This document shows, piece after piece, positions 1-11,961 of a stretch of 64,000 nucleotides of DNA. A program made the position numbers and the translations under genes. Position 1 is the stretch's first letter. Each line of letters begins with the position of its first letter. The notes below the pieces were generated by a model. The model was not told the DNA's origin, did not search any database, and saw only the letters and a list, made by a program, of their open reading frames with translations. Source of the stretch: Thermoplasmata archaeon (GTDB lineage: Archaea; Thermoplasmatota; Thermoplasmata; Lutacidiplasmatales; UBA184); NCBI GenBank assembly GCA_021798195.1, contig JAJZYH010000009.1, forward strand, positions 56 to 64,055. The letters run 5' to 3'.

Positions 1-317
1 TGTCCTACCGAACCCCCCTACCGGAGGTGGCGATGTTCACTTTCCCCCTTTCCAAGGTCTCTGGAGAACCCCACTCTCCGGGTCCGTCCCTCTCCCACGA
101 ACCGCGGTGGAGGGTCCTGGTTGACGAGGGATGACACCGGAGCGTGTGGGGCGTGGGGTTGGCGTTGGTCCGGCGTCGGCCACAAGCAACGGACCAGTCC
201 CTTCCCGACGATAGTTTCATGGGGACGCCCATCCATCTATCTCCGCATGTTGGGGCGAGCCCTTCCTTCTCATCGGCCGTGGGGCCCTCTCTCACCGCGC
301 TGGCCGTGGTGATCTCC

Positions 318-944
318 ATGGAGGGGCGGGTGGAGGGAGAGCGGGGAGACCATCCATCGGCACCGGTGAGTGAACCCCCCAGTACCTCGGAAAGTCCCCG
401 GCGGCTCATCGCGAAGGTCATCCTCCTGGGAGATGGAGCCGTGGGGAAGACCAGCCTCATCTCCCGCTATGTGTTCTCCATGTTCGATCCGCACTACGTG
501 GAGACGCTGGGGACCAATGTCACGGCGCGACAGGAGCGGGTGGAGACCCCCGAAGGGACCCTCGATGTCCGGCTGCAGATATGGGACGTGATCGGCCAGG
601 AGCGCTTCGACTCCATCTATATGGCGTACTATCAGGAGGCGGACGGAGCCCTCCTGGTCTGCGATGGGACCCGAAGGGAGACCCTGGACGGGATCTCGGG
701 CTGGCTCCATTCCGCGGAGGTGATCCTGGGGAAGTTCCCGGCGGTGTTCGCCATCAACAAGAGCGACCTACCCCCTGCGTTCCTGGCAAAGGATGTGGAA
801 GGCCGCCTCCGGGAGATTTCCCACGGGCAGTTCGCGGGGAGCCCGGTCTACAGTGTGAGCGCACGGACCGGAGAGAATGTTCGAACTGTGTTCCAGGAAC
901 TCACCCGGGCCGTCCTGGAGAGGCGGGGCATCCGGCTGGTCTGA
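318..944 (+). CDS. Ras-superfamily small GTPase (Rab/Ras-like) with a short N-terminal extension
   Basis: G1 GDGAVGKTS, G3 WDVIGQERF, G4 NKSD and G5 SAR motifs are readable in the translation. An internal ATG at 318 (MEGRVEG...) is preferred over the ORF start at 144. Confidence 0.6.
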   Translation: MEGRVEGERGDHPSAPVSEPPSTSESPRRLIAKVILLGDGAVGKTSLISRYVFSMFDPHYVETLGTNVTARQERVETPEGTLDVRLQIWDVIGQERFDSIYMAYYQEADGALLVCDGTRRETLDGISGWLHSAEVILGKFPAVFAINKSDLPPAFLAKDVEGRLREISHGQFAGSPVYSVSARTGENVRTVFQELTRAVLERRGIRLV

Positions 945-4552: not shown

Positions 4553-6055
4553 TCAATAGGTGGGCATCGAGGGGTCGACCCGTTGCGCCCAGGCGTCGAG
4601 CCCTCCCTTCAGGGTCCGGACCTTGGTGAACCCCATGGTCTGGAGGAACTTCACCGCGTCGGCGCTACGCCCTCCCACCTTGCAGTAGACCACCACGTCC
4701 TCCGACGTGGAGAGCTCCCCCAGGCGCTCGGCGAGGCTGTTCCGGGGGATCAGCTTGGAGCCGGGCAGGCGGCAGATCTCGTATTCGCCCGGCTCCCGGA
4801 CATCCACCAGGGTGATGGGGGCGCTCTGGTCCAGGAGCGACTTGAGGTCCTCGGGCTCGATCTCGAGCTCGGGGGGGAGGATCGTGGGGGTCCCGAGGCC
4901 GCAGAACTCCTGGTAGTCGACGAGGGACTTCTGCGTCGCATGGGGACCGCAGAGGACGCAGTCCGGGTCCTTCCGGATCTTGAGCTCCCGGAACGTCGTG
5001 CCCAGGGCATCCACCAGGAGGAGCCGCCCGATGAGGGGCTCCCCCTTCCCCAGGAGGAGCTTCACCACCTCGACGCCCTGGAGGGTTCCCACGAGCCCCG
5101 GGAGGAGGCCCAAGACCCCGCCCTCCGCGCAGGACGGTACCAGCCCGGGAGGCGGAGGCTGGGAGTAGAGGCACCGGTAGCAGGGTCCCCGGGAGGCATC
5201 GAAGACGCTCACCTGGCCTTCGAACCGGTAGATGGAGCCGTAGACGTTGGGCTTCTTCAGCAGGACGCAGGCGTCGTTCACCAGGTAGCGGGTGGGAAAG
5301 TTGTCCGTCCCGTCCACCACGACGTCGTACCGGGCGATGATGTCCAGGGCGTTCTCGCTGGAAAGGTGCACGTCATGCTTCACCACCTTCACATCCGGAT
5401 TGAGGTCCCGGATGCGCCGCTCCGCCGCCTCCAGCTTGGGGTGGCCCACGTCCGTCGTGCCGAAGAGCACCTGCCGCTGGAGGTTGCTCGCGTCCACCGT
5501 GTCAAAGTCCACGAGTCCCAGGGTCCCCACGCCTGCGGCGGCGAGGTACAGGGCGAGGGGAGAGCCGAGCCCTCCCGTTCCCACGAGGAGCACGCGGGAG
5601 GCGAGGAGCTTCCGCTGCCCGGCGAGGCCCACCTCGGGGAGGATCAGGTGGCGGCTGTAGCGGCGCATCTGCTCCGGGCTCAGCTTCTGGACGGTGGAGG
5701 TCGCGGTGCGGGGGGGCGCGGGGGAACGATGGAGAGCGGGGTACGCCACGGCCCCGGGGGACCCACCCGCGATGGAAGGGATGATGGTGATGACGTCTCC
5801 CGGCTTCACGGGGGTCGCCTCCCTCTGGAGGTATCGGACATCCTCGTCGTTCACGTAGACGATCACGAAGTTCCGGAGCCTCCCGTCCTCGGTGAAGAGG
5901 TGCCGCTGGATGGCCCCGTATTTCCGGGTGAGCTCGCTGAGGGCCTCTCCCACCGTGGCTCCGCTCGTCGCGACCTTCGCAGCTCCGCTGGTGAATCCCC
6001 GCAAGGGGGTCGGTATCCGTATCTCCACGCTCATGGTGCTCTCTCCTTCGTTCAT
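4553..6055 (-). CDS. Fusion protein: CysO/MoaD-like ubiquitin-fold sulfur-carrier domain (ends ...IIPSIAGG) + ThiF/MoeB-type E1 adenylyltransferase + C-terminal rhodanese (MoeZ-like)
   Basis: A roughly 91-aa N-terminal beta-grasp domain ending in GG, a linker, then E1 motifs (VLLVGTGGLGSP, CxxC pairs) and a rhodanese domain. Confidence 0.8.
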   Translation of the reverse strand: MNEGESTMSVEIRIPTPLRGFTSGAAKVATSGATVGEALSELTRKYGAIQRHLFTEDGRLRNFVIVYVNDEDVRYLQREATPVKPGDVITIIPSIAGGSPGAVAYPALHRSPAPPRTATSTVQKLSPEQMRRYSRHLILPEVGLAGQRKLLASRVLLVGTGGLGSPLALYLAAAGVGTLGLVDFDTVDASNLQRQVLFGTTDVGHPKLEAAERRIRDLNPDVKVVKHDVHLSSENALDIIARYDVVVDGTDNFPTRYLVNDACVLLKKPNVYGSIYRFEGQVSVFDASRGPCYRCLYSQPPPPGLVPSCAEGGVLGLLPGLVGTLQGVEVVKLLLGKGEPLIGRLLLVDALGTTFRELKIRKDPDCVLCGPHATQKSLVDYQEFCGLGTPTILPPELEIEPEDLKSLLDQSAPITLVDVREPGEYEICRLPGSKLIPRNSLAERLGELSTSEDVVVYCKVGGRSADAVKFLQTMGFTKVRTLKGGLDAWAQRVDPSMPTY

Positions 6056-6501
6056 GGGACTTCCGTATGGGATTGGACCTTGAGGGCGCGCTCCTCGAAC
6101 TTCATGCCGTCCGGGGTGAGTTCGAAGGCCCGGATCTCCCGGCCCTTCCCTCTCTCCACCCGCAGGACCAGGTAGGCGTACCAGGGCCAGGCATGGCCCC
6201 GGTCGAACTCGCTGGGATGGGCCGGATGGTCGGGGTGAGAGTGGTAGAACCCCAGGATCGTCCGGCCAGATCCCTCGAGCTCCTCCTCCGTCCTCCGGAT
6301 CTCCTCCGGGGCGATGACGTACCGACGGGATCGCTCCGCGGCCTGGACGTTGGTGGCCCGCCGGACCTCGTCCACCCGACGCGTCCCCCAGGGGGTGGTG
6401 GGCATGGGACCCAGGAGGAACCCGCAGGCCTCCTCGGGGTAGGTCTCCTCGGCGTGGCGGACGATCTCCTCAAGGTGTGCCTCCCGGAGGGTCACGTCCA
6501 T
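6052..6501 (-). CDS. JAMM/MPN+ metalloprotease (Mec+ / CysO-cleaving type)
   Basis: EEACGFLLG ... HSHPDHPAHPSEFD is an exact JAMM motif (E...HxHx7Sx2D). Start MDVTLREAH at 6501 is preferred. ATGA overlap with the E1 gene start. Confidence 0.8.
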   Translation of the reverse strand: MDVTLREAHLEEIVRHAEETYPEEACGFLLGPMPTTPWGTRRVDEVRRATNVQAAERSRRYVIAPEEIRRTEEELEGSGRTILGFYHSHPDHPAHPSEFDRGHAWPWYAYLVLRVERGKGREIRAFELTPDGMKFEERALKVQSHTEVP

Positions 6502-6538
6502 GGGGGGAGGGGCATCCGGAGCCTCCGCCCCGGGCACA

Positions 6539-7591
6539 TCAGCGATCCCCGTCGTTCCAATACTGTTCCCCAAGGTACCTGTCACCTCCATCGGGAAGAA
6601 GCGTCACGAGGACTCCCATCTCGAGGCCCGCCCCGAGCTTGAGGGCCGCATGGACCGCGGCGCCGGAAGAGGTCCCCACGAAGAGCCCCTCCTCCCGGGC
6701 GAGGCGGAGGGTCATGCGCTGCGCCTCATCGGTGCTCACCCGGCTCCAATCGTCGATGTAGCGATCGTCCAGGATCCCGGGGCGCAGAGAGGTCTCCAGG
6801 TGCTTCAGGCCCTCGATCCCATGGAGGGGGGAATCGGGAACGACCCCGGTCACCCGGATCTCCGGTCGGCGTTCCTTGAGGTAGCGCCCCACCCCGGTGA
6901 TGGTCCCTCCGGTGCCCACCCCCGCCACGAAGTGGGTCACGAGCCCCGCGGAGTCCCGCCAGATCTCGGGACCCGTGGTCCGGTAGTGGGCCATGACGTT
7001 GCAAGGGTTGTTGTACTGGTCGGGATAGAAATAGCGGTCCGGGTGGTCCTTCGCGAGCTCCTTCGCGAGCCTCTGGGCGCCGTCCGTCCCCTCGAGGGGG
7101 GACGAGAACCGGATCCGGGCCCCGTAGGCCAGGATCCTGCGCTGCCGTTCCATGGATGCGTTCTTGGGAAGGATGATCTCCACCGGGAAGCCCCAGAGCG
7201 CCCCCAGGAGGGCGTAGGCGATGCCGGTGTTCCCACTGGAGGCATCGAGGAGCGTCTTCCCCGGCGGCAGGCGTCCGTCGGCGAGGGCCGATCGGACCAT
7301 GGCAAGGGCGGCGCGGTCCTTCACCGACCCTCCGGGATTGAAGTGCTCGGCCTTGGCCCAGAGCTCCACCCCCCGGGGAAGGTCACGCCCTACCCGCGAC
7401 AGCCGGAGAAGGGGGGTCCCTCCGATCCGGGAGATCACGTCCGAGGGGGGTCCGGATCCGGAGGCACCCCGGGGACCGAGGCGTGGCGCGGACCCGGGAA
7501 CGGGTTCCCCGCACGCGGCGGGATCCCTGGGTCCCATGAGACTGTCGGGTTCCATGCCGTTTCCTCGCAGTTCCTCTTCGGGGGAGACCAT
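6539..7591 (-). CDS. cysM: Cysteine synthase, CysM/CysK family (PLP-dependent)
   Basis: GGTPLLRL, GGSVKDRAAL and SSGNTGIAYA motifs. The N-terminal roughly 50 aa of the ORF is probably not translated (start uncertain). Confidence 0.85.
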   Translation of the reverse strand: MVSPEEELRGNGMEPDSLMGPRDPAACGEPVPGSAPRLGPRGASGSGPPSDVISRIGGTPLLRLSRVGRDLPRGVELWAKAEHFNPGGSVKDRAALAMVRSALADGRLPPGKTLLDASSGNTGIAYALLGALWGFPVEIILPKNASMERQRRILAYGARIRFSSPLEGTDGAQRLAKELAKDHPDRYFYPDQYNNPCNVMAHYRTTGPEIWRDSAGLVTHFVAGVGTGGTITGVGRYLKERRPEIRVTGVVPDSPLHGIEGLKHLETSLRPGILDDRYIDDWSRVSTDEAQRMTLRLAREEGLFVGTSSGAAVHAALKLGAGLEMGVLVTLLPDGGDRYLGEQYWNDGDR

Positions 7592-7597
7592 GACGGG

Positions 7598-8257
7598 TCA
7601 GTGGGACCCCAACTGAATGAGATGGGTGCAGCTGTGCGCCCCCCGGGGGATGGAGTCCAGGAGGTCCACCCCGGCCTGGCCCAGGAGGTTCTCCAGGAAG
7701 TGCTGGTCGAAGACGTTGCAGAGGAGGTAGGCATGCTTCATCGCGGTGGCCCGGAACACGCAGTTCTTGCGCACCACCTGGAGGCGTTCCCCCTCCCGGT
7801 TGAGCTCCGCCCGCTGCCCCAGGTCGTTCAGGACCTTCACCACGGCCCTCAACCGGTCTTCCTTGGTGGTCTCCGGGGAGAAGGCCGGAAGCTTCTCCGC
7901 CACCTTCCGCGCGAATTCCTGGGCGGCCTGGACCATGAGGCTGGAGACGTACCCTTCCCCTTCCCGCTCCTCGAGGGCTCCGATGAGGGCGTCGAGGAGC
8001 ATCTCGTACCTTCGGGGGAAGATCTCCTGGCCGTCGGGGGTCAGGGAGAAGCGCTTGCGGGGCCGGCCCACACCCTGCCGGTGGAAGCTGGGCTGCACGA
8101 TACCGCGGTCCACCAGCCTTTCCAGATGGGTCCGGACGGCGGATTCCCGGATCCGGAGCACGCCGGCGAGTTCCTTCGCGGAGCGGGGGCCGGTCATCAA
8201 CTCTTCGAGGATCCTTCCCTTCGTCCCCTCCGCAGGGAGCAAGTCCACCATGTTCAT
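7598..8257 (-). CDS. ArsR/winged-HTH family transcriptional regulator (candidate SUF regulator)
   Basis: N-terminal HTH (GRILEELMTGPRSAKELAGVLRIRESAVRTHLERLVDRGIV) and a C-terminal Cys-containing domain. Divergent from sufC. Confidence 0.6.
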   Translation of the reverse strand: MNMVDLLPAEGTKGRILEELMTGPRSAKELAGVLRIRESAVRTHLERLVDRGIVQPSFHRQGVGRPRKRFSLTPDGQEIFPRRYEMLLDALIGALEEREGEGYVSSLMVQAAQEFARKVAEKLPAFSPETTKEDRLRAVVKVLNDLGQRAELNREGERLQVVRKNCVFRATAMKHAYLLCNVFDQHFLENLLGQAGVDLLDSIPRGAHSCTHLIQLGSH

Positions 8258-8362: not shown

Positions 8363-9145
8363 ATGACCGCGAACCCAGCCCACACGTTGACCGTGAAGAA
8401 CCTGCATGCCACCGTGGGTGGCAAGGAGATCCTCAAGGGGGTCACCCTGTCGCTCAAGTCCGGGGAACTGGTGGCCATGATGGGGCCCAACGGCTCCGGG
8501 AAGAGCACCCTCGCCAACGCGCTCATGGGGCATCCCAAGTACACCATCACGAAGGGGGAGGTCTACCTGGATGGCCAGAACCTTCTGGCCATGACCGTGG
8601 ACCAGCGGGCCCGGGCAGGCCTGTTCCTGGGCTTCCAGTACCCGGTGGAGGTTTCCGGGGTCTCCCTGTCCAAGTTCCTGTGGACCGCGTTCACCCAGAC
8701 CCGCAAGGCCGATGAGGTGGACACCGACGAGTTCCAGGCGGGCCTGGACCGGCACCTTGCCTACCTGGGACTGGACTCCTCGTTCCTGAAGCGCCCGTTG
8801 AACGAGGGGTTCTCCGGAGGGGAGAAGAAGCGGACCGAGGTCCTGCAGATGGCCACCCTGAAGCCTCGCTTCGCCATCCTCGACGAACCCGACAGCGGGT
8901 TGGACATCGACGCCGTGCGCTCGGTGGGCGAGACCGTGGACAAGCTGAGGAGCCCCGAGATCGGCATGCTGGTGGTCACGCACTACCAGAGGATCCTCAA
9001 GTTCCTGAAGCCCGACCGGGTCTACGTCATGGTGGACGGCGTGATCGCGCTGGAGGGCGGGGCCGAACTGGCCCAGGAGCTCGAGAGCCGGGGCTACGAC
9101 TGGGTGAAGGTGGGGGCGACGAACGCCCCCACGTCGGCCAGCTGA
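8363..9145 (+). CDS. sufC: Fe-S cluster assembly ATPase SufC
   Basis: Walker A GPNGSGKST, ABC signature FSGGEKKR, Walker B ILDEPDSGLD. GGAGAGGGGAG RBS before the ATG. Confidence 0.9.
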   Translation: MTANPAHTLTVKNLHATVGGKEILKGVTLSLKSGELVAMMGPNGSGKSTLANALMGHPKYTITKGEVYLDGQNLLAMTVDQRARAGLFLGFQYPVEVSGVSLSKFLWTAFTQTRKADEVDTDEFQAGLDRHLAYLGLDSSFLKRPLNEGFSGGEKKRTEVLQMATLKPRFAILDEPDSGLDIDAVRSVGETVDKLRSPEIGMLVVTHYQRILKFLKPDRVYVMVDGVIALEGGAELAQELESRGYDWVKVGATNAPTSAS

Positions 9146-9182
9146 ACCTTCCCGCGGGCTTTAACCCCCCGGCTCCGTATCG

Positions 9183-10442
9183 GTGGCGGCCATGCAAGAA
9201 CTCGAGGCGGGGGGAGCGGCGGGCTGCCGGAAGGATTTTCCCCTCCTCCGGCGCGTCTTCCACGGCCGTCCCCTCGTGTACCTCGACTCGGCGGCCACCT
9301 CGCAGAAGCCCGAGGAGGTCATCGCCGCCGAGGTGGAGTACTATAGCCGCCTCAATGCCAACGTCCACCGGGGGGTCTATGCCCTGAGCGAGGAGGCCAC
9401 CGACGCCTACGAAGCGGCGCGGGCCCGGGTGGCCCGATTCGTGGGGGCGAAGGACCCGGAGGAGATCGTGTTCGTCCGGGGGACCACCGAGGCGCTGAAC
9501 CTCCTCGCCACCTCCTGGGGTCGTCGGGAACTGAAGAAGGGGGACCGGGTGGTGGCCACGGAGATGGAGCATCACTCCAACATCGTTCCGTGGCACCTTC
9601 TCCGGGGCACGCCGGGGATCGACCTCGAGTTCGTCTCCATCACCGACGACGGGAAGCTGGACGGTCCGGACTTCGACCGGAAGGTGATCCGGGGCACGCG
9701 GGTCCTCACCATGACCCACGTCTCCAACGTCCTGGGGACCCTGAACCCTGTCCGGGAGCTCGCGGAAAAGGCGCATGACGCCGGGGCGATGGTGGTCCTC
9801 GACGCGGCGCAGTCCGCCCCGCACCTGCCCCTCGACGTGGAGAAGCTCGGGGTCGATTTCCTGGCCTTCTCGGGCCACAAGGTGCTGGGTCCCACCGGGA
9901 TCGGGGTCCTGTGGGGGCGCAAGGAGCTCCTGGGGAAGATGGAGCCGTACATGGGGGGCGGTGAGATGATCGTGGAAGTGGGCCCCCGGGAGATCACCTA
10001 CAAGGACCCGCCTTACCGGTTCGAAGCCGGTACGCCCAACGTGGCGGGAGCCGTGGTGCTCTCCCGGGCCCTGGACTACCTCGAGAAGGTGGGCTGGGAG
10101 GAGATCCAAGCGCATGAGAGGGACCTCATCCGGGACGGCTGGGAACAGCTCCGGGGGACCTTCGGGGACTCCATCCGGGTGTATGGGCCCCGCCCCTCCG
10201 ACGGGCACCATGCCGTGCTCTCGTTCACGTTCCCCCGCATCCACCCCCACGACGTGGCGAGCCTCCTGGACGCGGATGGAGTGGCGGTCCGGGCCGGCCA
10301 CCACTGCGCCCAGCTCATCATGAAGCGCTACGGCGTCCCCGCCATGACCCGGGCGAGCTACGGGATCTACAATACGCGGGAGGACACGAGGCAGCTCGTG
10401 GAATCCCTCCAGAAGGTCGTGCGGCTCCTGGGAACTCCCTGA
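9183..10442 (+). CDS. sufS: Cysteine desulfurase SufS (class II aminotransferase)
   Basis: LVYLDSAATSQKP, HHSNIVPW, SGHKVLGPTGIGVLWG, RAGHHCAQ motifs. Confidence 0.85.
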   Translation: MAAMQELEAGGAAGCRKDFPLLRRVFHGRPLVYLDSAATSQKPEEVIAAEVEYYSRLNANVHRGVYALSEEATDAYEAARARVARFVGAKDPEEIVFVRGTTEALNLLATSWGRRELKKGDRVVATEMEHHSNIVPWHLLRGTPGIDLEFVSITDDGKLDGPDFDRKVIRGTRVLTMTHVSNVLGTLNPVRELAEKAHDAGAMVVLDAAQSAPHLPLDVEKLGVDFLAFSGHKVLGPTGIGVLWGRKELLGKMEPYMGGGEMIVEVGPREITYKDPPYRFEAGTPNVAGAVVLSRALDYLEKVGWEEIQAHERDLIRDGWEQLRGTFGDSIRVYGPRPSDGHHAVLSFTFPRIHPHDVASLLDADGVAVRAGHHCAQLIMKRYGVPAMTRASYGIYNTREDTRQLVESLQKVVRLLGTP

Positions 10443-10462
10443 TCCGGCGGCTATCTCCCCGC

Positions 10463-10522
10463 GGAACCCCATTCCTGTGAATTTGTCAACAGGAATGTGA
10501 CCAAATGATTAAATACATTCCA
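10463..10522. promoter_or_regulatory. sufB promoter region: two inverted repeats with ATTCC/GGAAT half-sites flanking a TTAAATA box
   Basis: ATTCCTGT-N10-ACAGGAAT (10463-10488), TTAAATA, then ATTCCA-GTGG-TGGAAT. An AT-rich island immediately upstream of the sufB ATG. Confidence 0.45.
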
Positions 10523-10548
10523 GTGGTGGAATCGCCTGGAGGAGGAAG

Positions 10549-11961
10549 ATGGCACAGAACGCCGCCGAGCTCACCCCCTTGGACTACACTCGGTACGATT
10601 TCAAGAACCCCGAGACGTACAAGGTTCGGACGGCGAAGGGTCTTTCCGAAGAGATCGTCCGCCAGATCTCGAAGCTCAAGAGCGAGCCCCAGTGGATGCT
10701 GGACTACCGGCTCCGCGCCTACCAGCATTTCCTGGAGCGTCCCATGCCCGACTGGGGGCCCGATCTGTCCGAGATCGATTTCGATGCGTACACCTACTAT
10801 GCGAACCCCCTCGCCGAAGGGGACACCAAGAAGCGCTGGGAGGACCTTCCGGCCGACGTCCGGAACACCTTCGAGAAGCTGGGGATCCCCAAGGCGGAGC
10901 GGGAGTACTTCGGCGGGGTGGGGGCCCAGTACGACAGCGGCACGGTCTACCACAAGATCCGCGAGGACCTTTCCAAGAAGGGGGTCGTCTTCTGCGACAC
11001 CGACACCGCCGTGAAGGAGTACCCGGAGATCGTCCAGAAGTACTTCGGTAAGGTGGTCCCGTACAACGACAACAAGTTCAGCGCGCTCAATAGCGCCGTC
11101 TGGTCCGGCGGGAGCTTCGTCTACGTTCCTCCGGGGGTGGACGCCGGGATCCCCCTCCAGGCGTACTTCCGCATCAACGCGAAGAACGTGGGGCAGTTCG
11201 AGCGGACCCTCATCATCGCGGACAAGGACTCCAAGGTCCACTACATCGAGGGATGCACCGCCCCCATCTACTCCACCGATTCCCTCCACGCCGCCGTGGT
11301 GGAGGTGGTGGCGGAGCCCGGGGCCAAGGTCCGCTACACCACGGTCCAGAACTGGTCGAAGAACGTCTACAACCTGGTCACCAAGCGCGCCGTGGCCTAC
11401 GAGAACGCGCTGGTGGAATGGGTCGACGGGAACATGGGGAGCAAGATCACCATGAAGTACCCCTCCGTCTACCTCAAGGGGCGCGGGGCGCGCGCCGACA
11501 TCCTCTCGGTGGCCTTCGCCAGCGAGGGGCAGATCATCGATTCGGGGGCCAAGGCGGTCCACTCCGCCCCGGACACCTCGTCCAAGATCATCTCCAAGTC
11601 CATCGCCATCCGGGGGGGCCGGACCTCGTACCGGGGGCTCCTCCACGTGGCGAAGGGGGCCACCGGCGTCAAGGCGGCGGTCCGGTGCGATGCCCTCCTG
11701 CCCGACGCCGTGAGCCGGTCGGACACCTACCCCTACAACGAGATCCACGAGGAGGACGCCACCATCACCCACGAGGCGGTGGTGGGGAAGATCGGGGAGG
11801 AGCAGATCTTCTACCTCATGAGCCGCGGGCTCAAGGAGTCCGACGCCATCCACCTGATCCTCATGGGATTCCTCGCCGAGTTCGCGAAGGAGCTCCCCGT
11901 GGATTACGCCCTGGAGCTGAACCGCCTGATCCAGCTCGAGATGACCGGCGCGGTGGGATAG
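10549..11961 (+). CDS. sufB: Fe-S cluster assembly scaffold SufB
   Basis: Full-length SufB-like sequence (the conserved Cys in the IEGCTAPIYS region, C-terminal SufB/D fold). Confidence 0.9.
   Translation: MAQNAAELTPLDYTRYDFKNPETYKVRTAKGLSEEIVRQISKLKSEPQWMLDYRLRAYQHFLERPMPDWGPDLSEIDFDAYTYYANPLAEGDTKKRWEDLPADVRNTFEKLGIPKAEREYFGGVGAQYDSGTVYHKIREDLSKKGVVFCDTDTAVKEYPEIVQKYFGKVVPYNDNKFSALNSAVWSGGSFVYVPPGVDAGIPLQAYFRINAKNVGQFERTLIIADKDSKVHYIEGCTAPIYSTDSLHAAVVEVVAEPGAKVRYTTVQNWSKNVYNLVTKRAVAYENALVEWVDGNMGSKITMKYPSVYLKGRGARADILSVAFASEGQIIDSGAKAVHSAPDTSSKIISKSIAIRGGRTSYRGLLHVAKGATGVKAAVRCDALLPDAVSRSDTYPYNEIHEEDATITHEAVVGKIGEEQIFYLMSRGLKESDAIHLILMGFLAEFAKELPVDYALELNRLIQLEMTGAVG

Follow-up and report, generated by a model that had tools for sequence, protein, structure and literature searches.

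How can a sulfur carrier be activated when its Gly-Gly end is not an end at all, but lies inside a chain that continues into the very enzyme that has to activate it? This question is raised by a locus in a 64,000-nucleotide stretch of a Thermoplasmata archaeon (assembly GCA_021798195.1, contig JAJZYH010000009.1; the whole stretch is called the window), in which a CysO-like beta-grasp domain, a MoeB/ThiF/MoeZ-type E1 and a rhodanese domain are encoded by a single open reading frame (ORF), next to genes for a JAMM peptidase and a CysM-like enzyme. We consider it fairly probable that the cluster encodes a protein-thiocarboxylate cysteine route of the CysO/CysM/Mec+/MoeZ type, with the carrier made as the N-terminal part of its own E1 and freed by the adjacent JAMM. 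What was observed is confined to domain identities, the anatomy of the junction and comparative patterns, and all of the catalytic steps are inferred.

The longest ORF of the fusion is on the minus strand at 4553..6055 and encodes 500 aa. Translation is likely to start at the ATG at 6034, giving 493 aa, because a GGAGAG sequence lies 7-8 nt upstream, the 100%-identical database protein P0001 begins there and all homologues align from there. The ATGA overlap with the JAMM gene, which had been described in an earlier note on this DNA, is present for the longest ORF but not for the likely start, which leaves a 17-nt spacer to the JAMM stop. In the following, Pfam residue numbers refer to the 500-aa form, and G91, S92 and the linker residues to the 493-aa form. 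As the earlier note had proposed, carrier, E1 and rhodanese were found in one chain, with Pfam matches to ThiS (PF02597; residues 13-98, E 6e-14), ThiF (residues 133-366, E 1e-82) and Rhodanese (residues 401-491, E 2.5e-19). The first 91 residues (5762..6034, minus strand) end in ...IIPSIAGG, the two glycine codons being at 5762..5767, and their best solved relative was CysO from M. tuberculosis (3dwg_C, E 5e-17, over the full length), with a second CysO structure, 4n6e_B, also matched (E 3e-15). In an AlphaFold2 model of the fusion (35-sequence alignment; mean predicted local distance difference test score (pLDDT) 83.9; predicted template modelling score 0.73), this domain was confidently modelled with beta-grasp secondary structure (pLDDT 80-93), so that its assignment as a MoaD/CysO-like beta-grasp domain with a GG end was borne out by both approaches. 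The product name given by NCBI is MoeB only, and some JGI names list all three functions.

The E1 and rhodanese domains were also modelled with confidence. The E1 adenylation domain (4925..5692, minus strand) carries two CxxC pairs (CYRC and CVLC) and a crossover-loop Cys (VPSCAEGG). It matched the Uba4, ThiF and MoeB structures by sequence at E about 1e-58, and its predicted structure could be superposed on ThiF/MoeB with template modelling scores of 0.93-0.96. The C-terminal rhodanese domain (4553..4855, minus strand, including the stop codon at 4553..4555) has its active-site Cys in VVYCKVGGRS and aligns with the rhodanese domain of Uba4. Both CxxC pairs, the crossover-loop Cys and the rhodanese Cys were invariant among the 35 aligned fusions. 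A fold search with the whole model returned matches mostly to the E1 domain (Uba4, ThiF, MoeB and MccB), which is uninformative on how the ubiquitin-like (UBL) domain docks.

To place the fusion among its relatives, the 120 best protein clusters and the best 80 of at least 600 relatives, with one genome per GTDB species, were compared, and 82 loci were examined. ThiS, ThiF and Rhodanese were present in one chain in 119/120 of the best clusters, at 59-73% identity; the clusters with a named source came from Thermoplasmata or Euryarchaeota metagenome-assembled genomes (MAGs), plus one from Thermoanaerobaculia. No stop or frameshift lies between the UBL domain and the E1 in the window ORF, and the same was found in those 119 clusters and in 63/82 loci, among them 61 of the best 80 species-level genomes. 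That a frameshift, missed stop or misassembly had joined two genes is ruled out by this continuous frame in 119 independent clusters and 63 loci, from different species and assemblers, and we regard such an artefact as effectively refuted, its probability being negligible. It could draw on one near-identical contig without the UBL part. The only exception among the 120 clusters, P0011, is a close relative of 388 aa without ThiS, and its contig, L001, matches the window at 97.5% nucleotide identity, but only from the point where the E1 begins, and has no carrier domain upstream. The divergence is limited to the last 238 nt at the contig end, which are unrelated and non-coding-looking (L001:1-240 compared with window 5685..6034), and this is probably a chimeric contig end. 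Alternatively, it could be a real population variant without a fused carrier.

A glycine carboxylate locked in a peptide bond cannot be adenylated by MoeB/ThiF/E1 chemistry. In the window 402 residues follow G91 in the single ORF; the GG is internal and not terminal, a maturation step is therefore implied, and release is obligatory for any function of the domain as a carrier. The anatomy of the junction is consistent with this. The predicted scissile bond, G91|S92, opens a 23-aa linker between the GG and the E1 (5693..5761, minus strand), and residues 89-113, the GG included, have pLDDT below 50 in the AlphaFold2 model and are predicted to be disordered. A disordered GG and linker between confidently folded domains is, as modelled, the picture expected for an exposed cleavage site. 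Across relatives the linker is hypervariable, with 11-82 residues from the GG to the E1 RYSRH motif, and the motif before it, [IVL][IV]P[SA][IV]AGG, was present in 119/119 fused clusters and 82/82 loci. The residue directly after the GG (P1') was Ala, Ser or Thr in 110/118 clusters (93%) and in 53/63 species loci (84%), compared with a linker background of 31-32%. Small, Cys-like P1' residues are expected if the S1' pocket of the peptidase is built for a CysO-Cys substrate in the catalytic cycle. Every prediction of a processed pro-protein that could be examined at the sequence level agreed with these observations, and the pro-protein is supported to that extent, with cleavage and cysteine synthesis themselves being what we infer from it.

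One part of the linker is conserved in the Thermoplasmata subclade to which the window belongs. The first 11 linker residues, SPGAVAYPALH (residues 92-102; 5729..5761), represent a subclade-specific motif, x-P-G-A-V-A-Y/F-P-S/A-L/M-S, with 82% mean identity over 20 subclade clusters. This compares with 62% for the UBL domain, 76% for the E1, 65% for the rhodanese domain and 31% for the rest of the linker, and the motif was not found in the other clades among the relatives compared. It may provide recognition on the P' side of the cut, act as a regulatory element or matter as the N-terminus that the E1 would have after the cut.

In the proposed route, a 493-aa polyprotein would be translated, consisting of the CysO-like domain, a disordered linker of about 23 aa, the E1 and the rhodanese domain. 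The adjacent JAMM would cut after Gly91 (..AGG|S) and free the C-terminal carboxylate of the carrier. The E1 would then adenylate Gly91, and a persulfide on the rhodanese Cys would yield CysO-COSH. With aminoacrylate formed by the CysM-like pyridoxal phosphate (PLP) enzyme from O-phosphoserine (or O-acetylserine), the thiocarboxylate would, after an S-to-N acyl shift, give CysO-Cys. The same JAMM would hydrolyse GG|Cys, at the same bond position, releasing cysteine and recycling the carrier.

The genes for these steps are tightly packed. The cluster is formed by four co-directional genes on the minus strand, in the order ArsR-type regulator, CysM-like enzyme, JAMM and fusion. The JAMM/MPN+ zinc metallopeptidase (6052..6591; Prok-JAB E 3e-24) has 179 aa from the ATG at 6591 or 149 aa from the ATG at 6501, and the start at 6591 would place 53 nt of it within the 3' end of cysM. 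Most JAMM homologues begin near the internal ATG at 6501, and the N-terminal extension of about 30 residues (6501..6591, minus strand) aligns with that of the closest relative, L002. The exact JAMM motif noticed earlier was confirmed and is intact, E..HSHPDHPAHPSEFD (HSHx7SxxD), and the best structure match was 2kcq (E 2.7e-25), which we take to be a Salinibacter protein. For the CysM-like PLP-dependent sulfhydrylase (6539..7591; PALP E 3e-71), the longest ORF has 350 aa; its first ~45 residues are of low complexity, and the true start may be further in.

To determine how far this arrangement extends, the JAMM, CysM and domain sequences of the window served as queries against the loci, and upstream DNA of at least 1.6 kb was available for 75 of them. 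In this survey of fused and unfused loci, which had been proposed in the earlier note, a JAMM gene was located upstream of the carrier on the same strand in 72/75 loci and within 300 nt in 69/75, and a CysM homologue was upstream of the JAMM on the same strand in 68/75. The order CysM-JAMM-fusion is retained in about 90% of related loci, and the JAMM motif was intact in 79/80. The earlier note had regarded the pro-protein logic as that of an archaeon. However, the fusion architecture is widespread and mainly bacterial, with at least eight bacterial phyla among the best 80. Full-length matches (residues 1-493) among the best 80 came from Acidobacteriota (Terriglobia, Bryobacterales, Thermoanaerobaculia, Vicinamibacteria and Blastocatellia), Gemmatimonadota, Bacteroidota, Armatimonadota, Cyanobacteriota, Heliobacteriaceae/Clostridia, Rubrobacteraceae and Eisenbacteria, and in archaea from Thermoplasmata and one Nitrososphaerales MAG. 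The archaeal copies are found in more than one place on the E1 tree, which suggests lateral transfer.

The relatives in which carrier and E1 are separate are informative about the junction. In 19/82 loci a stop codon occurs shortly after the GG, and the E1 is encoded behind it by a gene of its own. All 19 unfused carriers have 1-27 residues beyond the GG (0/19 end at the GG), with tails including MY, V, R, AA, ARDRV and CCPCGCCCCPR. As every fused and unfused carrier has residues past the GG, the carrier is always made with a blocked C-terminus in this operon family. By parsimony on a neighbour-joining tree of the E1, the fused or split state has changed at least nine times. This could be because the peptidase of the pathway already cuts after the GG in each cycle, so that any extension would be removed at no extra cost and fusion, fission and short tails would interconvert freely. 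The fusion is thus one end of a continuum with short tails of the QbsE/CxnE type. The lack of relatives ending at the GG was not taken as proof of selection for a blocked C-terminus: with about nine fissions and random stops in a linker of 20-40 codons, zero would be expected by chance.

A 50%-identity representative library was also searched with the UBL domain; its top matches were mostly fragments or frameshifted calls, which gives no clean ratio of fused to unfused carriers, and some of the library tails may be frameshift artefacts. Cys-rich tails after the GG were common in unfused carriers, such as GG-CCPCGCCCCPR, GG-CCCCCCL and GG-CARRCICR (examples are loci L050, L062, L079, L057, L045, L023 and L042, and proteins P0185, P0152, P0159, P0140, P0204 and P0210). 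Cys made up 7.3% of tail residues, compared with 1.6% in fusion proteins and 0/3520 residues in fused linkers, and it occupied P1' in 13/93 short tails. These tails could mimic the carrier-Cys adduct, or could couple expression to the cysteine supply. Among the closest CysO-like domains there were also other architectures, judged from sequence only: tandem double beta-grasp, polyubiquitin-like proteins (P0121, P0141 and P0195), a carrier followed by a TusA/SirA-like CPxP segment (P0253 and P0201), and a carrier followed by an HCxxGxxR phosphatase/rhodanese-like segment (P0123).

Several points weigh against the cysteine route or against the adjacent JAMM as the processing enzyme. The MoeZ-type character assigned earlier to the middle of the fusion agrees with the ThiF and Rhodanese matches and the invariant Cys residues, but the score against the NCBIfam MoeZ equivalog (NF005902) was 479 bits, under the cut-off of 647, and the sole model passing its own cut-off was PRK08762 'MoeB' (472 vs 449). 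A CysM-type synthase does adjoin the JAMM gene, as had been stated, but its score against TIGR01138 cysM was 342 bits, under the 394-bit cut-off. Its closest solved relatives were the E. coli/Salmonella CysM at 237 bits, followed by the M. tuberculosis CysM at 196 bits, so that by sequence it is nearer to the E. coli sulfide/thiosulfate enzyme than to the mycobacterial O-phosphoserine enzyme. In an alignment read by eye, a Lys-His pair aligns with Arg210-Arg211 of E. coli CysM, which is not decisive for O-phosphoserine or O-acetylserine as substrate. As the equivalog cut-offs were missed, the proteins can be placed in their superfamilies, but the characterised proteins of mycobacteria and haloarchaea are not their close orthologues. 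The binomial p values of the P1' preference are tiny but nominal, since related sequences were counted as independent. The adjacency of the JAMM is no proof of precursor processing, because hydrolysis of CysO-Cys needs a JAMM in the operon anyway, and two fused loci, L051 and L086, had no JAMM within 4 kb. Finally, the view is that of a 64-kb window, and a separate carrier or another E1 could be encoded elsewhere in the genome.

The two points on the JAMM would favour a carrier that is released by autoproteolysis, by another protease or by a carboxypeptidase, with the JAMM only hydrolysing the CysO-Cys adduct. The adjacency is then already accounted for by the role of Mec+. For the MoaX fusion of M. 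tuberculosis, cleavage is reportedly necessary (PMC4326299), whichever protease is responsible. However, JAMM enzymes are able to cut linear Ubl fusions exactly after the GG, the hypervariable linker shows no evident autoprocessing motif, and the small, Cys-like P1' preference fits a pocket shaped for CysO-Cys. We therefore regard release without the JAMM as quite improbable. The precedents for release by a JAMM come from molybdopterin synthesis: HvJAMM1 cleaves a linear SAMP1-MoaE fusion exactly after the GG and is needed for activity in vivo (PMC4443979), and DRJAMM cleaves the MoaD-MoaE protein DR2607 exactly after the GG, which is needed for activity (PMC8832034). These Ubl-MoaE fusions are similar to the fusion in the window in that the carrier is in one chain with a pathway partner and its internal GG has to be exposed by a JAMM. 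They differ in that the partner is the sulfur-accepting MoaE of another pathway and not the activating E1.

Another possibility is that the beta-grasp domain is never released and helps the E1 with docking or regulation, as has been suggested for the Campylobacter-type ThiF, with the true carrier being a separate protein encoded elsewhere. A ThiF with a fused Ub-like domain that co-occurs with a solo ThiS, and probably has a different role, was described by Iyer et al. 2006, and only 64 kb of the present genome is in view. In contrast, the domain in the window is a true member of the ThiS/CysO family, its AGG is invariant in all fused clusters and loci, which would be unexplained if the glycines were never exposed, and it is followed by a disordered linker without conservation. 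In close relatives a gene of its own, at the corresponding position, codes for this domain, and no solo carrier was found in the conserved operon. Within the 64-kb window no second CysO-like carrier was detected either, as a hidden Markov model of the UBL domain matched only the fusion among all six-frame ORFs. An unreleased module is therefore very improbable. Other Ubl-E1 fusions are known, namely the Campylobacter-type Ubl-ThiF (Iyer 2006) and a Ubl-E1-TBP protein in Thaumarchaeota (Makarova & Koonin 2010), both of which also have an N-terminal beta-grasp domain on a MoeB/ThiF-type E1. Unlike the window, with its ThiS/CysO-family GG domain in a cysM/JAMM context, the Campylobacter type combines a Ubl from outside the ThiS family with a solo ThiS retained in the thiamine operon, and the thaumarchaeal type has a TBP-like C-terminus instead of a rhodanese domain, with no JAMM/CysM context reported. 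Makarova & Koonin observed that Jab and Ubl genes are seldom linked in archaea, and the tight JAMM-Ubl-E1 operon in Thermoplasmata therefore adds to the picture.

The fused carrier could also work mainly in a SAMPylation- or urmylation-like conjugation, or in a general sulfur relay such as tRNA thiolation or molybdopterin synthesis, with the JAMM acting as a deconjugase and CysM being secondary. Conjugation was proposed for JAB-linked operons by Iyer et al. 2006 (PMC1779556), and the mycobacterial MoeZR serves both CysO and MoaD, making a dual role possible (PMC3227635). The best NCBIfam names for the proteins in the window include the SAMP-activating E1, SAMP1 and desampylase. All three models, however, remained below their curated cut-offs: UbaA (NF047750) with 335 vs 450, SAMP1 (NF041918) with 48.5 vs 60 and desampylase (NF041370) with 87 vs 130. 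UbaA-type E1s are without the rhodanese domain that is present here, the closest solved relative of the carrier is CysO, and there are no E2/E3-like or target genes in the cluster. The linkage to CysM, which adjoins in 68/75 loci, dominates. The suggestion in the earlier note that the system could equally feed SAMP-style conjugation was therefore not upheld, and a mainly conjugating or relaying function is unlikely. A locus in a Chloracidobacterium MAG (L068:2281-3465), where a MetB/MetY-type PLP enzyme (family assigned by eye) replaces CysM upstream of the JAMM and the fused carrier-E1, suggests that the carrier module can serve other acceptors and feed homocysteine/methionine synthesis. This arrangement resembles the HcyS/HcyD/MetY homocysteine route.

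The thiocarboxylate cysteine route itself was established in M. tuberculosis with Mec+, CysO, CysM and MoeZR (Burns et al. 2005, summarised in PMC3227635). The cluster in the window has the same components, namely a GG beta-grasp carrier, an E1 that ends in a rhodanese domain, a JAMM and, clustered with them, a CysM-type PLP enzyme. CysO of M. tuberculosis is a free-standing protein of 93 aa with its C-terminus exactly at the GG, and moeZ is unlinked, whereas here, in a Thermoplasmata archaeon, the carrier occupies the N-terminal part of the E1 chain and has to be cut free to mature. The same gene set and predicted role are found in the type 4c operons of Iyer, Burroughs & Aravind 2006, which are composed of ThiS/MoaD, E1-rhodanese, JAB and cysteine synthase, and the listed Solibacter, Rubrobacter and Salinibacter overlap with the taxa found here (PMC1779556). 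The same authors predicted that the JAB frees ThiS/MoaD when it is fused to other proteins, but in their type 4c the carrier is given a gene of its own and rhodanese is the only fusion partner named for the E1, with the carrier-E1 fusion and its prevalence not described (PMC1779556). In the literature searched, which did not cover the survey of Burroughs et al. 2009, neither the CysO-E1-rhodanese fusion and how common it is nor the patterns at P1' and in the tails were found to be described.

Carriers made with a short blocked tail are also known. The HcyS tail (GG-A) is trimmed by HcyD. The QbsE tail (GG-CF) is trimmed by the JAMM QbsD, and trimming of CxnE (GG+10 aa) by CxnF was proposed (PMC5925218). 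These pro-forms share with the present system a blocked C-terminus, a JAMM encoded in the cluster and MoeZ-type activation, and the unfused relatives have exactly such tails. They differ in that a short peptide and not a 400-aa enzyme is removed, and in their products, which are a siderophore, an antibiotic or homocysteine. In eukaryotes, ubiquitin precursors (polyubiquitin and Ub-ribosomal protein fusions) have a blocked GG that is exposed by deubiquitinases. The likeness to the fusion is that a Ubl is made with a blocked GG which an enzyme of the deubiquitinase family must expose. The fusion differs from ubiquitin precursors in having the E1 as its partner and in yielding a sulfur carrier, and the releasing peptidase would act again in each catalytic cycle.

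It can be asked whether the blocked C-terminus of the carrier was selected as a safety interlock or zymogen switch, or is a neutral accident; selection for an interlock appears rather doubtful to us. With an interlock, the carrier would be protected from adenylation, thiocarboxylation and mis-conjugation as long as no active recycling peptidase is there, and single-chain translation would also set carrier and E1 at 1:1. The post-GG 11-mer of the subclade (xPGAVAYPSLS) may then add recognition or regulation on the P' side, and the Cys-rich tails could couple carrier maturation or downstream E1 translation to the cysteine supply.

The fusion is a widespread and largely predictable variant of the known M. 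tuberculosis pathway, neat and expected to a specialist. Nothing is overturned, as the principle was predicted in 2006 and has been shown for MoaD-MoaE fusions. What is new here are the comparative P1', tail and fused/split patterns, which point to cleavage after the GG, and the residual novelty lies in the post-GG 11-mer of the subclade, the Cys-rich tails of the unfused relatives and the possible selected interlock. If the proposed route is true, a prokaryotic Ubl is made fused to its own E1 and is freed by a deubiquitinase-family enzyme that acts also in every catalytic cycle, providing a compact and tractable system for the co-evolution of precursor processing, E1 activation and JAMM specificity before eukaryotic ubiquitin. 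Hundreds of genes now labelled just 'MoeB' encode a carrier and an E1. Searches for 'missing' CysO/ThiS/MoaD carriers fail when fused domains are ignored, and, if the proposed route is true, cysteine synthesis independent of sulfide would be absent from genome-scale metabolic models of Thermoplasmata, Acidobacteriota, Gemmatimonadota and others.

The first gene of the cluster encodes an ArsR/PadR-type winged-helix regulator of 219 aa (7598..8257, minus strand; Pfam HTH_5 E 1.5e-7), and its stop codon is 6 nt ahead of the cysM ATG. The sufC-sufS-sufB genes (8363..11961, plus strand) are oriented divergently from it, and the back-to-back arrangement of the regulator and the suf genes is shared with the Thermoplasmata relative L002. 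A homologous helix-turn-helix gene was found at the same position in the Thermoplasmata loci L002, L016 and L038, but not in bacterial loci. The C-terminal half of the regulator is Cys/His-rich (..NCVF..LLCNVFDQHF..GAHSCTH..). It may be a SufR-like Fe-S or redox sensor that co-regulates the cysM-JAMM-fusion and suf clusters.

Further away, a Ras/Roc/Arf-like small GTPase is encoded at 144..944 (plus strand; Ras E 3.5e-29) with an N-terminal extension of ~90 residues, and a 181-aa homologue is located at the syntenic position in L002.

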